64,000 bases of DNA, taken from the NCBI GenBank assembly GCA_016211945.1, contig JACRHV010000004.1, positions 2,649 through 66,648 of the forward strand. The letters are read 5' to 3'. Shown in pieces: positions 5,016-52,010 of the stretch. The notes below the pieces were generated by a model. That model saw only the letters and a program-made list of their open reading frames with translations, made no database searches and had not been told where the DNA came from. How positions within the stretch are numbered: the first letter of the stretch is position 1; the number at the start of each line of letters is the position of its first letter. This stretch comes from Minisyncoccota bacterium. Its GTDB lineage: Bacteria; Patescibacteriota; Microgenomatia; UBA1400; UBA12028. Position numbers and translations under genes: made by a program.

Positions 5016-5396
5016 ATGAAAACTAAAGTCTTTACACCAAAAGCTCCCTCTCCAGGATCAGGCCCATTTTCTCAAGCAATTATTGCCAATAATTTTGTTT
5101 TCACACAGGGTTCAATTTATCTCACTCCTGAAGGCAAATTGTTGGAAGGGACAATTGATGAACAAATCCACCAAATCATGAGAAATCTTCAAGCAATTCT
5201 AGAAGAAGCTGACGCAACATTTTCAGATGTCGTAAAAACAACAATTTTTGTTACTGATATGACGATATATGGGAAAGTAAATGAGATATATGCGAGTTAT
5301 ATGTCTGACCCATATCCAGCGAGGGAAACCGTATGTGTAAAGGAGCTTCCACTGGGTGCAAAAGCGGAGATAAGCATGATCGCGATAAAAAAATAA
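5016..5396 (+). CDS. ridA: RidA/YjgF family reactive-intermediate deaminase
   Basis: 126 aa, length and conserved positions typical of RidA (GPFSQAI..., C-terminal ...AKAEISMIA). Confidence 0.8.
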   Translation: MKTKVFTPKAPSPGSGPFSQAIIANNFVFTQGSIYLTPEGKLLEGTIDEQIHQIMRNLQAILEEADATFSDVVKTTIFVTDMTIYGKVNEIYASYMSDPYPARETVCVKELPLGAKAEISMIAIKK

Positions 5397-7711: not shown

Positions 7712-8946
7712 CGCCTGCTCCGTAATGTGTGCCAAGAAGAAAGGAAGAAAGCAGGCTGAACAATGAGACGTGCGAGAAGAAGCGCCCACCCCGCACCCAC
7801 AAACCCTCCGCGAGGTATGAAATAGAATAAGAGCGGAACCATGGCAATAAGGTAGAGAAAAGTCATCAGTGCGTTATAGTACGTTTTTTGTTTCACGATG
7901 AACAACGGCGAACAAATATTATTGATAGCCTGCATGTATGCGGCGCCAAGAAGAAAAGGAAGAATTGGTACAATTGGAAGCCATTTTTCACCCAAAACAA
8001 ATCGGACTAAAGGTTCTGCGTAGAAAAAAAGTGCGGCAAGTGGAGCCAAGAGGAGAACTGCAAGCAAAAAGATGCTAAGGAAAAACGCTCTCGTAAGTCG
8101 AGGAAGATCATGCGTAATTTTTCCAAAAATGGGGAAGACTGTTTGTGCTGAGATATCGCCAATCTCACCAATTGCGGTTTGAGACACATTAAATGCGGTG
8201 TCGTAGTACCCAAGTGTTGAGGTTCCGAGGAGCTTTGCAATAATGAGATTATCTAAATTCGAACCGAGATATGCCAAAACACCACTTACATTGAGCCAGG
8301 CGCCGAATCGAAGTACTTCCTTAAATTTTGTAAACTCAAAGTTCAATCTTGGTTTAGGAGAGACAAACGCCAACGTTATCGCCGTCTCAACACAAACGGA
8401 GATGAGTTGACTGAGGATCAATGCAACTGGACTTCGTAGAAGATACGCGAGACCAATCGCACTCAATACATCAACGACAATTAAGATGAGACGAATAATG
8501 ACATCCTTATGATATGCAAATGTGCGTTGAAACAACGCCACAGACGGGTTAATAAACCCCTTGATCAGTGGAATGCAAACCGCAACCCACATAAGCGGCA
8601 CAATCGTGGGTTCACGGTAGAACCAAGAGAGTGGATAGGTAAGTGAGGTGAGTATCGCACTGATGACGATTCCCCGCAATACAGAAACATGCCAGGCAGT
8701 GTTGATGTATTTTTTTGGATCCTTTGTAGTCTGAACAAGAAAGGGGTTAATGCCTGTCTCTGTTAACATTTCTGTCAGCGCAAGCATGATCACCACAATA
8801 CCGAACAGTCCGAAATCACGCGGAGACAGAATGCGGGCCAAGATGACAATTTTTAATAAAACAAGTCCTTTGGTACAGACTTTGAGAAAAGTTAACCATC
8901 GTAAACCGAAGATTGCATCACGTGTGTATCCCATATCGCCTTGCAT
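7708..8946 (-). CDS. wzx: Wzx-type polysaccharide/oligosaccharide flippase (PST family)
   Basis: 412 aa, ~12 TM helices, N-terminal pattern (ILARILSPRDFGLFGIV...) typical of polysaccharide biosynthesis flippases. Confidence 0.65.
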   Translation of the reverse strand: MQGDMGYTRDAIFGLRWLTFLKVCTKGLVLLKIVILARILSPRDFGLFGIVVIMLALTEMLTETGINPFLVQTTKDPKKYINTAWHVSVLRGIVISAILTSLTYPLSWFYREPTIVPLMWVAVCIPLIKGFINPSVALFQRTFAYHKDVIIRLILIVVDVLSAIGLAYLLRSPVALILSQLISVCVETAITLAFVSPKPRLNFEFTKFKEVLRFGAWLNVSGVLAYLGSNLDNLIIAKLLGTSTLGYYDTAFNVSQTAIGEIGDISAQTVFPIFGKITHDLPRLTRAFFLSIFLLAVLLLAPLAALFFYAEPLVRFVLGEKWLPIVPILPFLLGAAYMQAINNICSPLFIVKQKTYYNALMTFLYLIAMVPLLFYFIPRGGFVGAGWALLLARLIVQPAFFLSSWHTLRSRR

Positions 8947-10105
8947 ATACTATACCGATCGCTGTCCAAAATGCCACCATGACCCATGGATAAAAAATGA
9001 GGTTGTTAAAGAGCGAACCAATCAGAATAGAGACAATCATAGAGATACCTATCGTGTTGCTTCTCGCAAACCAAAGAAGCTGTAAGAGAAATACGCCAAA
9101 TAACGAAAGCCCAATGATTCCTGTGGACTGGAGTACGGTAACAAAACTATTTCCGGGGGCAGATGAATGCGACGGGATGTAGTTTTGTGTAAATCCTCTG
9201 TTCGATTGACTGAGATACCATCCGTCGCCAATAATCCATGTTCGTAGAGTGAAGGTTTGCAATGTTGATGTAATTGCAGTATTCCGTGCTTGTACGCTCA
9301 CCGTTCTTTCAAGTCGTGCTCCTTCACTTGCTGGTCTCGGAAGGAAAAAAATTCCGACAGTAAAAAGAGCAAGGACAATGAGTATTTTTCTCTCTCTTTT
9401 CATGAATCCGTACACAATCAATCCAATGATATAACTTGCATATCCAGCACGTGAATATGTAAAAAGTAGAGCTACAAATGTTACGCACCATCCGAGACGC
9501 ATAATAATCGGAAGACGGTGTAGTTTTGGATATACTCCAAGAAGTACGAGCGTAAAGAGAGCGGCCGGAAAAGGGGGGTCAAGGAGTGTTGATACAAGAC
9601 GAAAGTAATGGTCATCCCATCCTAGAAGTGTAAGCCATCGCAGATCGGGAAAAATGACATACTGCACAATTCCAAACATGGCAAGGAGGTAGACGAAGAT
9701 CACTGCAATATATATCACGTCCGTACGTGTGACGTACCGTTTTTGAATTCCAATAGTGATAAGGGGAAAAAGTGAGGTGTACATTGCAACACGAAATAGG
9801 TATAAAAGTCCGATAAAAATCGGAAGTCCCCGGAAGCCCGCACTATATACTGAGATGCCAGCTACAACAGAAAAAAGTATCAAAACAGTAAAAAAGGGAA
9901 GCCTTTTGTATGCCGCAAAAACGTCTTTTGGGTAGAATATCCAACTCCCGATACCTCCTATAGCGATAAAAATCTCGTGCAGATAAAAAGAAATTATTGG
10001 TGTTACATATATTTTTTGAAACTGTCCCAAAACAAGTAATCCGAAAAATACGAGAAGAAAAATCCTATAGAAAAATCGCATAGTATACAGCAGGTTATGT
10101 TTCAT
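8918..10105 (-). CDS. O-antigen ligase/polymerase-like (Wzy_C-like) polytopic membrane protein
   Basis: Many TM helices with a central periplasmic loop (FTYSRAGYASYIIGL); sits in the glycan gene cluster. Confidence 0.45.
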   Translation of the reverse strand: MKHNLLYTMRFFYRIFLLVFFGLLVLGQFQKIYVTPIISFYLHEIFIAIGGIGSWIFYPKDVFAAYKRLPFFTVLILFSVVAGISVYSAGFRGLPIFIGLLYLFRVAMYTSLFPLITIGIQKRYVTRTDVIYIAVIFVYLLAMFGIVQYVIFPDLRWLTLLGWDDHYFRLVSTLLDPPFPAALFTLVLLGVYPKLHRLPIIMRLGWCVTFVALLFTYSRAGYASYIIGLIVYGFMKRERKILIVLALFTVGIFFLPRPASEGARLERTVSVQARNTAITSTLQTFTLRTWIIGDGWYLSQSNRGFTQNYIPSHSSAPGNSFVTVLQSTGIIGLSLFGVFLLQLLWFARSNTIGISMIVSILIGSLFNNLIFYPWVMVAFWTAIGIVYARRYGIHT

Positions 10106-46808: not shown

Positions 46809-47996
46809 TTAAAGAATCGAGTTTGCTAGCAGTTGGAGAAGTTTTCCACTATCTCCAAATGCAATCGTTGGAGATTTTTGTTTTTCAAGCAGTATGAGCC
46901 CATCTTTAGCTTTATCTCTATGATGTTTTCCGTGTATCCATGTATAACTCGCATACCAACATCCATGTTTGGGAAAAACTCCAGATAGAATTGCCCCCAT
47001 ACTTTCAAGATAGAGAGAGATCTGACGAAAATCTTTCATACATGGTATTTGGAATATTGTTGTTTCAAATACACTCTCTTCGTCTAGTAATTCTTTAAGC
47101 ATTTCCACACCTAAAACATCGGAAACAACACGCGTATGTGTTACGGAATTTTCATGAATTGACATCTCGCGAAAAAAATACTGCCTTGACTTCTTTGTAT
47201 CCACAGCTCGACCTATTTCCTTAAGTTGTTCTGTTGAATAAAGAAAAAATGGTTTTTGAGCGTCTGTCATATCGTGTGGTGGATTTATGTATTCATGTGT
47301 TCCTGGTTTTTCGTGGAAAAACGTAGCAAATCGGCCTAAACCAGAGTCACTATCTGTTGATAACATGGCTTGAGCTATGCTTGCATTAAATTTTTTTCCT
47401 ATATGTGCATTCCAATCTAAGACAACGTCTTGTTGTATCACGAATGAGGATGGATGAAGCGCCAAAGCTGGTGTGTCTATTGTTGATAGAAAACGTTGAA
47501 TTGCGAGTGTTAACGTTGTTGAATCAGACACAAGTGTGTAATCTGGAAAAAGCGTTGAAGTTTCGTGAACGGGTATCGCAAACGCAGATAAAACACCATT
47601 ATTCTGCTTTTCTGGGAGTGTCGCTACTCGACCAAACTCAACCGTTCTTTCTGCGTGATCAAAAACAAGACTAACTGTCCCCACTGGTTTCTGTTCATGA
47701 TCTGTAGCAAGAAAACAGAGTGTTTGAATATCAATGAAATTATTTGCCTGAGATACAGATAAAAGAAATGCGTGAAGTATGTCCTCTGGATTATTAAAAA
47801 CTTCATAAAAATAGTGAACAAGTTTTCCTAGCCCCCAAGCTCTCCGCAACATTTCAGAAATATGGTGTGCGTCATCTAATGTTTCTGCAAGACGAATATC
47901 ATACCCTTGACTACGGTATGATTGGCCAGCTAACAGATTCTGAACAATTTCAGATTGATTATCCAATTTTTGGAGTAATTCTTTGCGTAATGGCAT
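46809..47996 (-). CDS. Hypothetical protein (395 aa), possibly with a GNAT-like region
   Basis: Clean ORF; segment VGTVSLVFDHAERTVEFGRVATLPEKQNNGV is weakly GNAT-like; otherwise unassigned. Confidence 0.4.
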   Translation of the reverse strand: MPLRKELLQKLDNQSEIVQNLLAGQSYRSQGYDIRLAETLDDAHHISEMLRRAWGLGKLVHYFYEVFNNPEDILHAFLLSVSQANNFIDIQTLCFLATDHEQKPVGTVSLVFDHAERTVEFGRVATLPEKQNNGVLSAFAIPVHETSTLFPDYTLVSDSTTLTLAIQRFLSTIDTPALALHPSSFVIQQDVVLDWNAHIGKKFNASIAQAMLSTDSDSGLGRFATFFHEKPGTHEYINPPHDMTDAQKPFFLYSTEQLKEIGRAVDTKKSRQYFFREMSIHENSVTHTRVVSDVLGVEMLKELLDEESVFETTIFQIPCMKDFRQISLYLESMGAILSGVFPKHGCWYASYTWIHGKHHRDKAKDGLILLEKQKSPTIAFGDSGKLLQLLANSIL

Positions 47997-48009: not shown

Positions 48010-48231
48010 TTACACCACTACCGCATGTTCTTCATGATATTGATATAAAATATCTGATTCTTCTAGGTTAATTTCATTCTTTGCACACGCTTGGAGTATT
48101 GCCATGCTTGCAGATGGTGCGTACGCATATGGAATATTCCCAAAATCTTTCACGAAACCTGCCATTGTTCGTAATATTGCTATAGCACGATCTGAAGTAA
48201 GTTGTTTTTCTAATTCTTCTGCAGTTGGCAT
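48010..48231 (-). CDS. Small hypothetical protein (73 aa from the ATG; the ORF track uses an upstream TTG)
   Basis: The ATG at 48231 has an AAAAAGGGGG RBS 4-5 nt upstream; lies 13 nt upstream of the 395 aa gene. Confidence 0.35.
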   Translation of the reverse strand: MPTAEELEKQLTSDRAIAILRTMAGFVKDFGNIPYAYAPSASMAILQACAKNEINLEESDILYQYHEEHAVVV

Positions 48232-48284
48232 ACTACCCCCTTTTTCAATCTTCAAAGGATTGTATTCTTGGATATTTTCTCTGC

Positions 48285-48333
48285 TTGACTTATTTCTGAC
48301 TGTTTCTGACTATTAATGACTTTTTGATATAAT
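48285..48333 (+). promoter_or_regulatory. Promoter with four helically phased TGACT direct repeats and an extended -10
   Basis: TTGACT(48285)-n5-CTGACT-n4-CTGACT-n4-ATGACT, then TG-a-TATAAT (48325-48333). The third repeat gives a -35-like CTGACT with a 16 nt spacer. The -10 ends 7 nt before the ATG at 48341. Confidence 0.45.
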
Positions 48334-48340
48334 ACCAGAC

Positions 48341-49600
48341 ATGGATAATTATCTTTATCCTCTTCCACGAAAAATATTACTCAAAAGATTTGAGAGCTTA
48401 TTCTGGTGTATTGCCCATCGCTCTTCCGTGAGCTTCGTCGGTCTTCCAGAAAGTGCAAAAAGCGGGTATCTTCAATTCATTCTCAGTAAACCAGACCATC
48501 TTGAGGAATTATTACAAGATCATATAAAAAATACTATTCTTGTCTATTTCTCGCCAATATCATTTGAGCCGAATAATCCATACGCATGGCTTCACCAACT
48601 CAACATTAAACTCGCTGAGATAGATTCGACATACCACTGCATACAAAGCAATGACCCTGTCATAGTGCTCTCTTCAATACAACACTATCTCATTCAGCTT
48701 CATGATCGAGGCAAGCATTGCGTTTTCATCATAAACAATCAGGAGTACTGGACCTCTTTGCCCTCTGTGGCAGGACAAATATGGAAAGCAATTTTTGATA
48801 CAAAAAGGCATCCGCCAAACCCGGCATGCTCACTTGTTTTCCTCCTTCACACATCTCCATACATCCTTCAAGATTCATCTGATTTTTTCCGCGAACTATA
48901 CATTCCTCTGCAAGAAAATGTGCTTTTCTTTCCAACTCTTTCTCAAGAAGAATCTTTATATACTATTCAACGTTTTTCTTCCTTTTCTCATAATGAGTTG
49001 TCCATTCAGATAAAAAATATGCTTGTTCAATATTCTGGTGGATATTATCCCGTTTTGAGAGAGAGCGTACGATTATTCTTCAGAGTGAAGAGAAAAATTA
49101 CGCAAAAGCATCTTCTTCAATTAGGGAAACATGACGTTCTTCTTTCTCTTTTTCAAAAGATGTGGGACTCATTCACCGAATCAGAAAAAAGTGTTTTGAG
49201 ACGTATTGTTCAGTACAAATCCGTTCCCAAAGATACAGAACAGCAACAATTTCTTTCTAGATTAGGAGTCATAGCAAACACCGGAAAACTCCAATCATTG
49301 TGGTTTGAGATATTTATCCGTGAAAAAATGTATCGCTCGGCATTATCGCCATTTGAGGTTGATCGATTTTCATATCTGTCCGGCATTGAACAAACATTGA
49401 TCCATGAATTTCTCAAACGGAAAAATGAAGTTATTTCCCGAGAAGAAATCGCTCAAATTCTCTGGGGAGAAAAATATCTTGAAAAATATTCTGATTGGGC
49501 GATAGATAAAACCATCTCGAGAATGCGAAAAAATATGGAACATCATCACTCTACTATTAGTGTTCAAACCATCAAGGGAAAAGGGTATCAAATCATATGA
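48341..49600 (+). CDS. OmpR/PhoB-type winged-helix DNA-binding protein with a ~300 aa N-terminal degenerate P-loop NTPase-like domain (no receiver domain recognised)
   Basis: C-terminal trans_reg_C-like segment ISREEIAQILWGEKY...DWAIDKTISRMRKNM...ISVQTIKGKGYQI. N-terminal Walker-A-like GLPESAKS and Walker-B-like HCVFIINNQE, both degenerate. Confidence 0.6.
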   Translation: MDNYLYPLPRKILLKRFESLFWCIAHRSSVSFVGLPESAKSGYLQFILSKPDHLEELLQDHIKNTILVYFSPISFEPNNPYAWLHQLNIKLAEIDSTYHCIQSNDPVIVLSSIQHYLIQLHDRGKHCVFIINNQEYWTSLPSVAGQIWKAIFDTKRHPPNPACSLVFLLHTSPYILQDSSDFFRELYIPLQENVLFFPTLSQEESLYTIQRFSSFSHNELSIQIKNMLVQYSGGYYPVLRESVRLFFRVKRKITQKHLLQLGKHDVLLSLFQKMWDSFTESEKSVLRRIVQYKSVPKDTEQQQFLSRLGVIANTGKLQSLWFEIFIREKMYRSALSPFEVDRFSYLSGIEQTLIHEFLKRKNEVISREEIAQILWGEKYLEKYSDWAIDKTISRMRKNMEHHHSTISVQTIKGKGYQII

Positions 49601-51207
49601 CAGCACGAACAGATCATGAAAATAGAATGCGAAGGATCACAGTCGGTGTTGATAATGTGCTTGTTATGGCGCAAAAACGATCAGAAATCCTTCAACCAGA
49701 TGAAGAAGATGAATCTTTTGTTATCCCTACTCTACAAACGATAACAGAACGGGAATCATCGATGATTCAATACATTCAATGCATGTTAAAAAATTCACAT
49801 CATCAGGCACAAATTGTCCTTGTCGGCGACGCTGCTTTAGCAGAAATTCGCGGATATCGATTACCAAGTCAAAAAACCACAGATCTTGATCTTCTTGTTA
49901 TAGGTGTGACTCAAGATGAGGTTGAGAAAGTATTACATGACCATCAGGCCGAAGGAAAATACACTATTTCATATGATTATGCTCGTACATATCCTGGAAA
50001 AAGAAAAATATACTATAGACTTACATTTAAAGATGGAGTTCAAGTACATGTCTTTTGCACCATTTTTCCAGACACAAAAGAGCAACTTCTTGATATTGGA
50101 GATGCGCTTCGCCACTTACCAAATGGAACCGTGGGAATTATTTGCGAAGGGCATGAGTATCGAGGATACTCACCATTTCAGAATGGGATTGACCATGTGC
50201 GCGACAATACCATTGTAGGCCATCCATTCCCAGAGGGCGTAGAATCTGGATCTATTGCAACATTTACCGCAGTACTTCGATGGATTATCGACACACAAAG
50301 ACTTCCGTATTTTTCTATTCCAAACGAGGACTATAACAAGATGAGACGATGGTCTGCCGCTTTTCAAGAACAGAATCTCACAGACGAAGAAACTCAAACA
50401 CTTGATGTTGTTCTTCACTCTGAACTTTCAAAAGCTTTTGATCGATTTGGAAAAAGTGATAACAGAGAAAGTGCATCAATTTTCTTTTGGAAACTTCAGT
50501 ACACTGGATTTCTTCAGGCATTACTTGGGCCGGCATGGTCAATTACCTCGCGGCGATTGTCTTCTCAAGATCCACATCGCCTTGCCTTGATGAATTTTTT
50601 TGGTCAGGAAAGTAGTTGGGAAATATTTCAGACAGCTTTTACATTATGTTCAGATATCCCAACAGCAGAAATCGCAGAAAGAACTGGATTACCACTTCCT
50701 GAACACTGGCATACATCAATCTATTGGAATAAAAAAGTACTGGAGAACATAAGTGAAAAACCATTAGTATTTGAGGGTATATACATCCCCGCTTCTCAAG
50801 TGATTCACCATCAAACTGCCGATAAAAAATATCATGCTGTTTCTTATCAAGATTTCATTACACGAAAGATACTATATGAAAAAGCTCATGATATTTATTG
50901 GAAACAAATTCAACCACGCATTGAACGATTTATTTTGAGAGAAAGGCGAGATATATATAAAGAAACAGGGCTCGATATTTTTGGCGGAAAAGAAGGTATT
51001 TTTGAGGAAATGGTGCGCACCGCAATTATTCGTCTATTGATGTCTGATGTGTTTGAGCAAGCTTTTTACCAATCGCTTACTCTGGCACAATACACTGATC
51101 TTTTATCAGCAGACACTTCTTTTACTTCAAAACTTGATAGACAACTTGCAGAACTTTTGAATGTGTGGCATAACATTCCTGTTGAAAAAAGACACAAAAC
51201 TACGTAA
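49597..51207 (+). CDS. Pol-beta-superfamily nucleotidyltransferase domain protein (AbiEii/DUF1814-like motif) with a long C-terminal extension, 536 aa
   Basis: hG[GS]x9-13Dh[DE]h-type signature IVLVGDAALAEIRGYRLPSQKTTDLDLLVIG resembles GGTAL...R.S.DLDF of AbiEii-like NTases. Start overlaps the upstream stop (ATGA). An internal MIQYIQ start would put the motif near the N-terminus. Confidence 0.55.
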   Translation: MTARTDHENRMRRITVGVDNVLVMAQKRSEILQPDEEDESFVIPTLQTITERESSMIQYIQCMLKNSHHQAQIVLVGDAALAEIRGYRLPSQKTTDLDLLVIGVTQDEVEKVLHDHQAEGKYTISYDYARTYPGKRKIYYRLTFKDGVQVHVFCTIFPDTKEQLLDIGDALRHLPNGTVGIICEGHEYRGYSPFQNGIDHVRDNTIVGHPFPEGVESGSIATFTAVLRWIIDTQRLPYFSIPNEDYNKMRRWSAAFQEQNLTDEETQTLDVVLHSELSKAFDRFGKSDNRESASIFFWKLQYTGFLQALLGPAWSITSRRLSSQDPHRLALMNFFGQESSWEIFQTAFTLCSDIPTAEIAERTGLPLPEHWHTSIYWNKKVLENISEKPLVFEGIYIPASQVIHHQTADKKYHAVSYQDFITRKILYEKAHDIYWKQIQPRIERFILRERRDIYKETGLDIFGGKEGIFEEMVRTAIIRLLMSDVFEQAFYQSLTLAQYTDLLSADTSFTSKLDRQLAELLNVWHNIPVEKRHKTT

Positions 51208-51209
51208 AT

Positions 51210-52010
51210 CTACTTCTCCACCGCCACATAGGTCTTTGCGAAATCCACTTCCGCAGTTGCTGATTTCCCATCAACTTTCGTTGGGTAACTTTTCCACTCT
51301 TTTCCCGTCCAGGCCATAATGACGGCTGGTTTTGCATCGGATAACCGCAATGAGACTTTTACTTTACCATCTTGCATAGAGGTAGTTCCAGCAATAGAGT
51401 ATGGTCCCGCTAATACAGTTTTTTCCAAAGAACCGGGAAGACCTGGATTATTAAACACAATCACATATGCAGATCCTTTAAACAACTTTCCTGTTTCTAT
51501 CTGAAACTTCCCATCTCTTGAAGCAAAAGAGGTTTGTGGCTTTTTGTTATCAACATATGACCACTCGTTGGAAAGTTTGTAGTTCGCGTTATAAAACGTA
51601 AGGACTAAACTCCCACCGGTGACGTTTTCGTGATAGGTAATCTTTCCACCGCCACTTTTTGATCCAAGCAACACTGTTTTCACATACGGCGATTTTCCTC
51701 GGCCAAAATCAATAGAGCCAATTGCCGCCTCCTCTTTGTCTCCAGCCGAATACTGTAACTCATAGTCCACGCTCTCAGCCTTCTTCTGCAGATCACCAAT
51801 AGTCATCACAACCTCGCGTGCAGGAGTAGGCTCTAACATAACAAAGGGGCGCTCAGCCGCTGGTATTTGATTTATTGGTAAAGAGAGTTTTGGTTTTAGC
51901 GTTGGAGAAGGCGTGGTCGACGCCGTCTTCTTTCCCTTGTTCATCAATAAAAATACGCCGCCGCCTAAAACCGCAATGCCAACCAACAAAAGAAGGGTGA
52001 GTTTTTTCAT
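51210..52010 (-). CDS. Membrane-anchored/secreted hypothetical protein (266 aa)
   Basis: N-terminal TM/signal (MKKLTLLLLVGIAVLGGGVFLL), then a Pro/Thr/Ser linker and a beta-rich domain; overlaps the glyQS stop by 4 nt. Confidence 0.45.
   Translation of the reverse strand: MKKLTLLLLVGIAVLGGGVFLLMNKGKKTASTTPSPTLKPKLSLPINQIPAAERPFVMLEPTPAREVVMTIGDLQKKAESVDYELQYSAGDKEEAAIGSIDFGRGKSPYVKTVLLGSKSGGGKITYHENVTGGSLVLTFYNANYKLSNEWSYVDNKKPQTSFASRDGKFQIETGKLFKGSAYVIVFNNPGLPGSLEKTVLAGPYSIAGTTSMQDGKVKVSLRLSDAKPAVIMAWTGKEWKSYPTKVDGKSATAEVDFAKTYVAVEK

Follow-up and report, generated by a model that had tools for sequence, protein, structure and literature searches.

What does a bacterium use two tightly overlapping genes for when one resembles a regulator, the other a nucleotidyltransferase (NTase), and both lie among housekeeping genes? 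The question is raised by a 64,000-nucleotide stretch of contig JACRHV010000004.1 from a Minisyncoccota bacterium (here, the window, numbered from its first letter), in which two such genes, referred to as A and B, occupy positions 48341–51207. The first-pass annotation had proposed a candidate toxin-antitoxin (TA) or abortive-infection-like module, consisting of an OmpR-type winged-helix/pseudo-NTPase protein and an AbiEii-like NTase. Our best explanation is an autoregulated module of a regulator and an RNA-NTase, specific to bacteria of the Candidate Phyla Radiation (CPR), co-transcribed and translationally coupled, to which we assign a probability of about 0.4. The genes and their junction are as follows.

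48341–49600, forward strand: gene A, 419-residue regulator with a modeled AAA+/STAND-like module, a winged helix and an OmpR-type winged helix-turn-helix (wHTH)
49597–51207, forward strand: gene B, 536-residue protein with the modeled fold of a divergent class II (CCA-adding or poly(A) polymerase [PAP]-like) NTase
49597–49600, forward strand: ATGA start/stop overlap of A and B, kept in 8 of 10 loci, predicted to couple their translation

Rechecking of the open reading frames (ORFs) placed both genes and their overlap exactly where they had first been annotated. Far from being a singleton, the pair belongs to a conserved two-gene family. Protein A has about a dozen full-length relatives (31–74% identity), and in every A-homolog locus that was fetched, the downstream gene on the same strand encodes a protein of 490–660 residues without a Pfam match. 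These downstream proteins are homologous to B (BLAST E values of 1e-13 to 1e-25, 21–27% identity). A word-indexed homolog search for B, with either the single sequence or a five-sequence profile, returned only B itself and one relative with 73% identity. The B family was recovered through the neighbors of A homologs and by an exhaustive HMMER search, which gave only nine cluster representatives among 1.84 billion. Gene A is located immediately upstream of B in all ten B-family loci examined, and two B relatives of unknown context, when looked up from the B side, were each preceded by a Trans_reg_C gene (417–418 residues) with a 4-nt overlap. The genes flanking the pair are wholly different between lineages, so that comparison of neighborhoods gives a constant pair (10 of 10 B loci) in variable surroundings. 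All B-family loci come from CPR bacteria; the MAG (metagenome-assembled genome) of the window belongs to Candidatus Pacebacteria. Phage and plasmid collections and 2.9 million viral contigs contained no detectable relatives of A or B, the B alignment being too divergent for scanning.

Eight of the 10 loci have the in-frame ATGA overlap; in the remaining two, the genes are 5–7 nt apart. In L001, a syntenic relative of the window, the gene caller chose a later Met for B; the in-frame ATGA start is nonetheless present. No promoter or terminator was found between A and B; in front of B lie the purine-rich codons that encode the conserved KGKGY tail of A. Judged by this arrangement, A and B are co-transcribed and translationally coupled.

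L001 was also used for a window comparison, in which the ratios of nonsynonymous to synonymous substitution rates (dN/dS) are approximate because dS is near saturation. The housekeeping neighbors are 87–92% identical with dN/dS of 0.04–0.08, and A and B are both approximately 73% identical with dN/dS of 0.11 and 0.12, respectively; nonsynonymous change in A and B is 2–4 times faster than in the flanking genes. The GC content drops from approximately 0.45 to approximately 0.37 over 47–51 kb. At third codon positions (GC3), A, B and an adjacent gene for a 395-residue protein form a low-GC3 island (0.25–0.34, against 0.40–0.46 in the flanks; 0.26–0.34 for A and B alone). A and B are functional genes under purifying selection, yet they are faster-evolving and compositionally distinct from their surroundings.

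In Dojkabacteria-type loci, a third gene convergent to B lies immediately or just downstream of it (L002, 9018–10844; L003, 8998–10569; L007, 5843–7393; all on the reverse strand). Its product (516–608 residues, 50–58% identical between loci) has no Pfam match, and the gene is absent from the window.

Protein A has the following features.

48440–48466, forward strand: degenerate Walker A motif GLPESAKSG (residues 34–42), with Ala instead of Gly before Lys
48719–48745, forward strand: degenerate Walker B strand CVFIINNQE (residues 127–135), with Asn-Asn instead of Asp-Glu
49376–49591, forward strand: OmpR/PhoB-type winged helix (Trans_reg_C, residues 346–417), with a near-invariant recognition segment KYSDWAIDKTISRMRK

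The C-terminal winged helix, which had been recognized from its motifs, was confirmed by the Pfam match of residues 346–417 to Trans_reg_C (E value of 9e-12, 45 bits against a cut-off of 26.2 bits). PDB profile matches to this domain include PhoB, OmpR, ToxR, RstA and others. The rest of Pfam gave nothing for A at E ≤ 1, including the receiver domain (Response_reg), and the NCBIfam matches cover only the DNA-binding domain (DBD) of response regulators and fall far under their cut-offs. An AlphaFold model of A, built on a 16-sequence alignment, has a predicted local distance difference test score (pLDDT) of 89. With residues 1–330, Foldseek retrieved ORC/Cdc6, Apaf-1, CED-4, plant NLRs and the archaeal ATPases 2qen and 2fna (probability 1.0, E values of 2e-7 to 6e-5); in this search, the signal-transduction ATPases with numerous domains (STAND) are not cleanly separated from the ORC/Cdc6 clade. 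The N-terminal fold and the Pfam result agree with the earlier view that A has no receiver domain. The model consists of a P-loop fold of the nucleotide-binding oligomerization domain (NOD) type with helical and winged-helix subdomains, a disordered linker, and then the OmpR-type winged helix. No BTAD or TPR was matched by Pfam in A, and the model has no repeat domain.

GLPESAKSG and CVFIINNQE occupy the places of Walker A and Walker B in the modeled AAA+/STAND fold. A functional Walker A (GxxxxGK[ST]) and Walker B (hhhhD[DE]) are missing from A of the window and from its close family, and canonical motifs survive in distant relatives such as P0023 (PHTGKS; VVDEME or IIDKME). Because these relatives keep the GKS and DE residues, the label "pseudo-NTPase", given to A on its degenerate motifs alone, is fair. 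The modeled architecture thus describes A as a NOD-like pseudo-ATPase fused to an OmpR DBD.

The region upstream of A contains a putative operator and a promoter.

48285–48321, forward strand: predicted operator of four YTGACT direct repeats with 10–11 bp spacing, unique in the window
48306–48333, forward strand: predicted promoter, ranking first among the sigma-70-like sites of the region (10 of 12 positions matched, TG included)

The repeats start at 48285 (TTGACT), 48296 (CTGACT), 48306 (CTGACT) and 48316 (ATGACT). The promoter comprises a −35-like CTGACT at 48306–48311, which is the third repeat, a 16-nt spacer, an extended −10 TG at 48325–48326, and TATAAT at 48328–48333, so that the repeats overlap its −35 region and spacer. 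The sequence immediately 5' of A reads TTGACTtatttCTGACTgtttCTGACTattaATGACTttt-TG-a-TATAAT-accagac-ATG. Three TGAC copies with a 10-bp period occur once in the 64 kb window, against an expectation of 0.01 from shuffles; for the repeat array, the chance expectation is 0.01–0.1. All ten A genes share the layout of GCTTGAY, two or three (C)TGAC repeats at a 10-bp period, and TGATAnAAT at 6–11 nt from the ATG, despite A proteins that are only 31–38% identical; as a test of prediction, the two loci that were added later, from the B side, show this layout as well. At 48328–48341 of the window and in its counterparts in L001–L008, L092 and L093, the −10 box ends 6–11 nt before the start codon, leaving no room for a Shine-Dalgarno sequence. 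With the −10 box ending 7 nt before the ATG of A, a leaderless mRNA is predicted.

OmpR-family proteins bind tandem direct repeats. In addition, AfsR, which combines an OmpR-type DBD with a NOD, binds two 11-bp direct repeats that span −40 to −19 and overlap the −35 region and spacer, and its NOD gates activation (PMC10936776). Taken together with the repeats upstream of A, this binding habit and this precedent suggest that A binds the repeats and autoregulates the operon. Because the extended −10 is consensus, A is somewhat more likely to repress than to activate its own promoter.

Two further repeat pairs were observed. L005 contains a second exact CTGAC-N5-CTGAC pair in inverted orientation (8673–8687, reverse strand), 48–62 nt upstream of the gene that follows B. 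This gene (8735–9829) encodes a 364-residue protein without a Pfam match, and a TATAAT box of its own lies 7 nt ahead of the ATG; the pair may mark a further promoter targeted by the regulator. The other exact pair, at 5301–5315 of L006, lies within the coding sequence of a membrane protein and may be due to chance.

For protein B, four segments are referred to below.

49816–49905, forward strand: NTase motif A region VLVGDAALAEIRGYRLPSQKTTDLDLLVIG (residues 74–103), with G77, A80, D96, L97 and D98 invariant in the family
50038–50061, forward strand: beta strand VQVHVFCT (residues 148–155), containing the H151 column
50269–50313, forward strand: helix AVLRWIIDTQRLPYF (residues 225–239), with R228 invariant and R235 nearly so
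50482–50532, forward strand: body-domain segment FFWKLQYTGFLQALLGP (residues 296–312), aligning with FFQVLRDCGALRVLFP of E. coli Cca; weak, collinear, and not significant alone

The model of B has a mean pLDDT of 66.9, rising to 70–90 over residues 40–390 and poor after residue 390. It contains a Pol-beta NTase core within the head, neck and body fold of class II enzymes, and the top nine Foldseek matches are all class II CCA-adding or A-adding enzymes (E values of approximately 2e-5, 480–560 aligned columns), with MenT1 ranking 42nd. This core and the invariant G77, A80 and D96-L97-D98 bear out the Pol-beta signature that had been noticed at the N-terminus. The C-terminal extension of approximately 400 residues, also noticed at first, is in the model largely the neck and body of the class II fold. 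At the sequence level, B has no match in Pfam, NCBIfam, PADLOC or PHROGs, and alignment of its profile with E. coli PcnB by hhalign gave a probability of 0.9%. Against E. coli Cca, motif A and the body segment each gave weak, collinear and non-significant matches, and phmmer and BLAST comparisons among B, other NTase-like partners (described below) and Cca/PcnB gave only sub-threshold matches at motif A. The sole PDB profile match of B is a marginal one to a minimal NTase over G-S-x-A...DxD.

Motif A in the B family takes the form hhVG[DSRG]xA...DLDhhvxG, in which the Arg-Asp of "VRD" in GGxVRD...DxD is not conserved. The second position of G[GS] is D, S, R or G (Asp in the proteins of the window and L001), and the spacer is 14–21 residues long (17 in the window protein). 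The H151 column holds Asp or Glu in the other eight family representatives and His in the window and L001 proteins; from the alignment, this column may hold the third catalytic carboxylate of the family. By position, the helix of residues 225–239 may be the counterpart of the RxxRxxR/motif D helix in class II enzymes. In those enzymes, motif B is RRD and motif D is EDxxR, which templates CTP/ATP. Neither a conserved RRD nor EDxxR was found in the B family; R228 is preceded by [ST][AGS] and the templating Glu-Asp is missing. Canonical CCA-adding enzymes have been reported from Patescibacteria (bioRxiv 10.64898/2026.05.29.728689), and B is extremely rare. B is therefore best described as an accessory, highly divergent NTase with the modeled class II fold, neither a housekeeping enzyme nor an AbiEii protein.

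We propose the following mechanism for the pair. Protein A would bind the repeats as a head-to-tail oligomer, as OmpR-family proteins and AfsR-type Streptomyces antibiotic regulatory proteins (SARPs) do, and thereby set the expression of both genes. Its dead NOD-like module would serve as an oligomerization switch or as one that binds a ligand or partner, not as an ATPase. Protein B would be the enzymatic output, a template-independent NTase acting on RNA 3' ends, with tRNA-like substrates the most plausible and a nucleotide specificity unlike CCA or A addition, and would probably work while physically bound to A. On this view, the module would be an accessory, fast-evolving one and not housekeeping, and we do not think that it is a classical TA pair. 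Several points weigh against this explanation. Strict pairing and translational coupling are also expected of a TA or signaling pair. The model of B is only moderately confident, and residues 390–536 are unmodeled. No significant sequence profile links B to PolyA_pol (no PF01743 match at E ≤ 1). The Asp in G[GS] together with His151 may mean that catalysis has been altered or lost in B of the window. Finally, without RRD and EDxxR, an RNA 3' end as the substrate would be an extrapolation from the modeled fold.

Proteins related to A extend beyond the A+B family. A scan of reference genomes found 78 loci (L014–L091) with A-type regulators carrying the signature [KR]YS[DN]WAID. They are nearly all from CPR bacteria (Ames-, Woese-, Roizman-, Gottesman-, Levy-, Davies-, Shapiro-, Dojka- and Pacebacteria), and some metagenome-assembled genomes (MAGs) have two or three paralogs. 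A tightly linked downstream gene is present in about half of the superfamily loci. The partners belong to many unrelated families without a Pfam match; recognizable ones are four HAD hydrolases, one SAM methyltransferase and one cytidine deaminase. Several partners have a motif A like that of CCA enzymes, for example GGAARNMALGREELTDLDL, and two of these match the phage "nucleotidyltransferase" family phrog_1614. In an iterative HMM search, no link to B emerged for the partners of distant A relatives (L008–L011 and 30 others). Three YTGAN repeats with a 10–11 bp period were found in 20 of 82 superfamily upstream regions, against 0.0027 per background window (approximately 90-fold); examples are at L016 4900–4950, L074 4930–4965 and L049 4385–4420. 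This enrichment fits the near-invariant recognition helix of A. Therefore, the operator type appears to be superfamily-wide, with the A+B pair as one conserved subfamily.

Four side observations concern the superfamily. Where a genome has several paralogs and one repeat core, avoidance of cross-talk would be unexplained if all of them recognized it. The SAM methyltransferase partner (a member of alignment A4) matches the PADLOC defense model mad2 (E value of 7.8e-15), a hint that at least some superfamily modules may be related to defense. On a 1.13 Mb contig, the partner gene of P0016, which is a distant relative of A, is directly followed by a phage-type integrase gene (L009, 8338–9747, reverse strand). 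A-type regulators also occur in MAGs labeled Clostridia, Bathyarchaeia and Gammaproteobacteria (L022, L027, L062 and many "uncultured Gammaproteobacteria" loci). Because the distribution is otherwise exclusively CPR, these contigs are probably mis-binned or mislabeled CPR and not cases of horizontal transfer.

In the window, the pair is flanked on one side by genes for MraZ, MraW, FtsL, a penicillin-binding protein (PBP) and a Mur ligase, which belong to the dcw cluster, and on the other by those for glycyl-tRNA synthetase (GlyRS), RecO and a DUF4012 protein. Annotation of these neighbors upheld the housekeeping context (dcw and glyQS) without nearby mobile-element genes that had been described: no tRNA or mobile-element gene lies within approximately 25 kb of A and B, and an Rfam scan of 45–53 kb gave no matches. 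The borders of the low-GC3 island showed no insertion scar, tRNA or integrase besides one weak 19-nt repeat. This imperfect direct repeat (46832–46850 and 51280–51298, 16 of 19 positions identical) brackets the 4.4 kb low-GC island almost exactly, with both copies inside coding sequence, and could be due to chance or an old insertion scar. Two genes on the reverse strand are divergent to A. The one at 46809–47996 encodes the 395-residue protein of the island, which has a faint GNAT similarity (Pfam E value of 0.036) and found nothing in a PDB sequence search; it combines low GC3 (0.25) with fast evolution (77% identity, dN/dS of 0.19), as A and B do. The other is a small ORF at 48010–48255, of approximately 73 residues if read from the ATG at 48231, with a ribosome-binding site AAAGGGGG; in L001 it has shrunk to approximately 19 codons. 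Neither gene travels with the A+B pair in other lineages.

Among the alternatives, the TA or abortive-infection-like module survives best. Here, B would be a toxic NTase that modifies tRNA acceptor ends, comparable to MenT/AbiEii except for its class II CCA scaffold, and A would be both its antitoxin and an autorepressor. We consider this possible, on the unlikely side. The order of regulator first and NTase second, with coupling and predicted autoregulation, is the gene layout of AbiE (PMC3985639), and the fold of a tRNA enzyme is well suited to an attack on tRNA 3' ends. The fast nonsynonymous evolution of A and B, their low-GC3 island, the variable genomic context and the rare, patchy distribution point in the same direction. 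So do the swapping of partners in the superfamily (NTase-like proteins, HAD hydrolases, a deaminase and a methyltransferase, with one match to mad2) and the integrase gene adjoining one distant pair. Against these stand the sizes of the proteins (419 and 536 residues), far above those of typical TA components, the architecture of A, which is that of a signal-gated regulator, and the fact that two related genomes keep the pair in the same place, under purifying selection. Furthermore, no relatives were found on phages, plasmids or the viral contigs, and the possible third catalytic residue is His151 in the lineage of the window.

Membership in the known families also argues against a TA module. 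The label "AbiEii-like" for B did not hold: neither Pfam nor PADLOC gave a match to DUF1814/AbiEii (COG2253-COG4849), and a pattern search found motifs III (KLxAaxxR) and IV (+DxxD), as defined in PMC3985639, in none of the ten B-family sequences. AbiEii motifs I and II (hG[GS]x9-15DhD) are generic to the Pol-beta superfamily, so that the relaxed form in B is not diagnostic of AbiEii. The PADLOC match of A to AbiEi reaches only 13.4 bits (E value of 0.01), short of membership. B does not belong to the CD-NTase/CBASS or MNT-HEPN families either, and an identity with those systems was rejected.

A second alternative makes B the input and not the output. In such a two-component-like signaling pair, B would nucleotidylylate A, make its ligand, which would be destined for the degenerate P-loop pocket, or act as a separate sensor domain, and the true output would be transcription from promoters with CTGAC repeats. 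A lacks the TPR, WD40 or LRR sensor that is usual in STAND proteins and cannot hydrolyze ATP by the usual motifs, and A and B co-occur in 10 of 10 loci. An ATGA-coupled OmpR-type regulator and partner enzyme also resemble the operons of response regulators and kinases, and the second repeat pair in L005, which precedes the gene after B, is a hint of further targets besides the operon's own promoter. The window contains no further triple-repeat site in its 64 kb and thus no visible regulon, and about half of the wider superfamily has no tightly linked partner. We regard this alternative as rather improbable.

Still less weight falls on a catalytically dead B, a former class II NTase that would now have a structural or RNA-binding role as non-enzymatic cargo beside a regulator. 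The variable second position of G[GS] (D, S, R or G), His151 in place of an acidic residue in the window lineage and the loss of RRD and EDxxR are what such a protein would show. The invariance of G77, A80 and D96-x-D98 at approximately 20% identity is hard to explain without a metal/nucleotide site, and the dN/dS of 0.12 also speaks against a dead B, leaving this alternative a slim chance.

The first-pass annotation had itself named the observation that would make the pair conventional, namely a response regulator with a divergent receiver next to a housekeeping CCA-adding enzyme or poly(A) polymerase. Half of that picture was found: B does have the class II CCA/PAP fold and A does have a Trans_reg_C domain; B is not housekeeping, and A is not a response regulator. 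The N-terminus of A is a P-loop AAA+/STAND fold instead of a CheY-like receiver and has no Response_reg match. B lacks a PolyA_pol match in Pfam as well as RRD and EDxxR, is extremely rare in a group reported to have canonical CCA enzymes (bioRxiv 10.64898/2026.05.29.728689), and evolves faster than its housekeeping neighbors. The fold of A and the motif loss, rarity and evolutionary rate of B effectively exclude a conventional pair. An integrated-replicon remnant, with A as an ORC/Cdc6-like initiator on iterons and B as a polymerase or primase-like NTase, would account for the ORC/Cdc6 structures among the best Foldseek matches of A and for tandem direct repeats upstream of an initiator-like gene, and it is effectively excluded as well, since there are just three or four short repeats that coincide with the −35 region and spacer of the own promoter in every locus, no GC-skew inflection at the position of A and B, no integrase, partition or mobilization genes nearby in the window, no plasmid or phage relatives found, and a B fold that is that of a tRNA NTase and not of a primase or family X polymerase.

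CPR bacteria (Patescibacteria) have very small genomes with few recognizable regulators, and their gene control is almost uncharted. Our analysis reveals a widespread CPR regulator superfamily with a NOD-like module invisible to Pfam, a C-terminal OmpR domain, a predicted operator and predicted leaderless promoters, and it establishes the obligate genetic coupling of an A-type regulator and a B-type NTase. The unannotated B family has the modeled fold of CCA-adding and poly(A) enzymes with the nucleotide-selection motifs lost, which would imply a new RNA-tailing or nucleotidyl-transfer chemistry. Should B turn out to attack tRNA as a toxin, or to modify its own regulator, the pair would represent a new type of TA, defense or signaling system; if not, it would still be among the first definable sets of regulator, operator and target for CPR bacteria. 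A bolder idea, which we think unlikely, is that the superfamily comprises CPR-specific conflict or addiction modules. Each would combine a constant self-regulating pseudo-STAND/OmpR protein with interchangeable effectors that modify nucleotides or nucleic acids: here a class II NTase toxin acting on tRNA 3' ends, elsewhere other NTase-like proteins, HAD hydrolases, a deaminase or a methyltransferase. If true, this would be a new TA or defense architecture and the first case of a CCA-enzyme scaffold turned into a weapon.

The proposed module can be compared with four known systems. The class II tRNA NTases and PAP I (PolyA_pol; 4wby, 3h37, 1miv and 3aql) share the modeled fold of B. Unlike them, B has no significant profile match to the family, has neither the RRD of motif B nor the templating Glu-Asp of motif D, and is approximately 100 residues longer, with an unmodeled C-terminal region; its rarity, its fast evolution and the operon that it shares with a regulator set it apart from a housekeeping gene. 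The type IV TA systems AbiE and MenAT are bicistronic like A+B, the gene for a wHTH regulator preceding that for a Pol-beta-superfamily NTase, and regulate their operons through repeats in their own promoters, as is predicted for A. AbiEi (COG5340-type) has an N-terminal wHTH, a C-terminal antitoxin domain and inverted repeats, whereas A has a C-terminal OmpR-type wHTH and direct repeats. With the OmpR/PhoB response regulators, A shares the C-terminal Trans_reg_C domain and the style of tandem direct-repeat site; in contrast to them, it has no receiver and no adjacent histidine kinase, and its N-terminal 330 residues are P-loop AAA+/STAND-like.

The closest parallel to A is AfsR, a large SARP of Streptomyces, in which an OmpR-family winged helix is likewise joined to a STAND/NOD-type module and the target is likewise a set of tandem direct repeats, approximately one helical turn apart, over the −35 region and spacer. 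AfsR consists of an OmpR-type DBD, BTAD, NOD/NB-ARC and TPR, whereas the order in A is reversed, with the NOD-like module at the N-terminus and the DBD at the C-terminus. A has neither BTAD nor a TPR sensor, and its N-terminal module is unmatched in Pfam. AfsR is switched by ATP, whereas Walker A and B are degenerate in A. Furthermore, AfsR occurs in actinomycetes, whereas A occurs in CPR bacteria and is always coupled to a partner of NTase fold. The combination of domains, which had not been recognized as a described system in the first-pass annotation and for which we also found no description, is built of familiar components: AfsR-like NOD/OmpR logic and a class II NTase fold.

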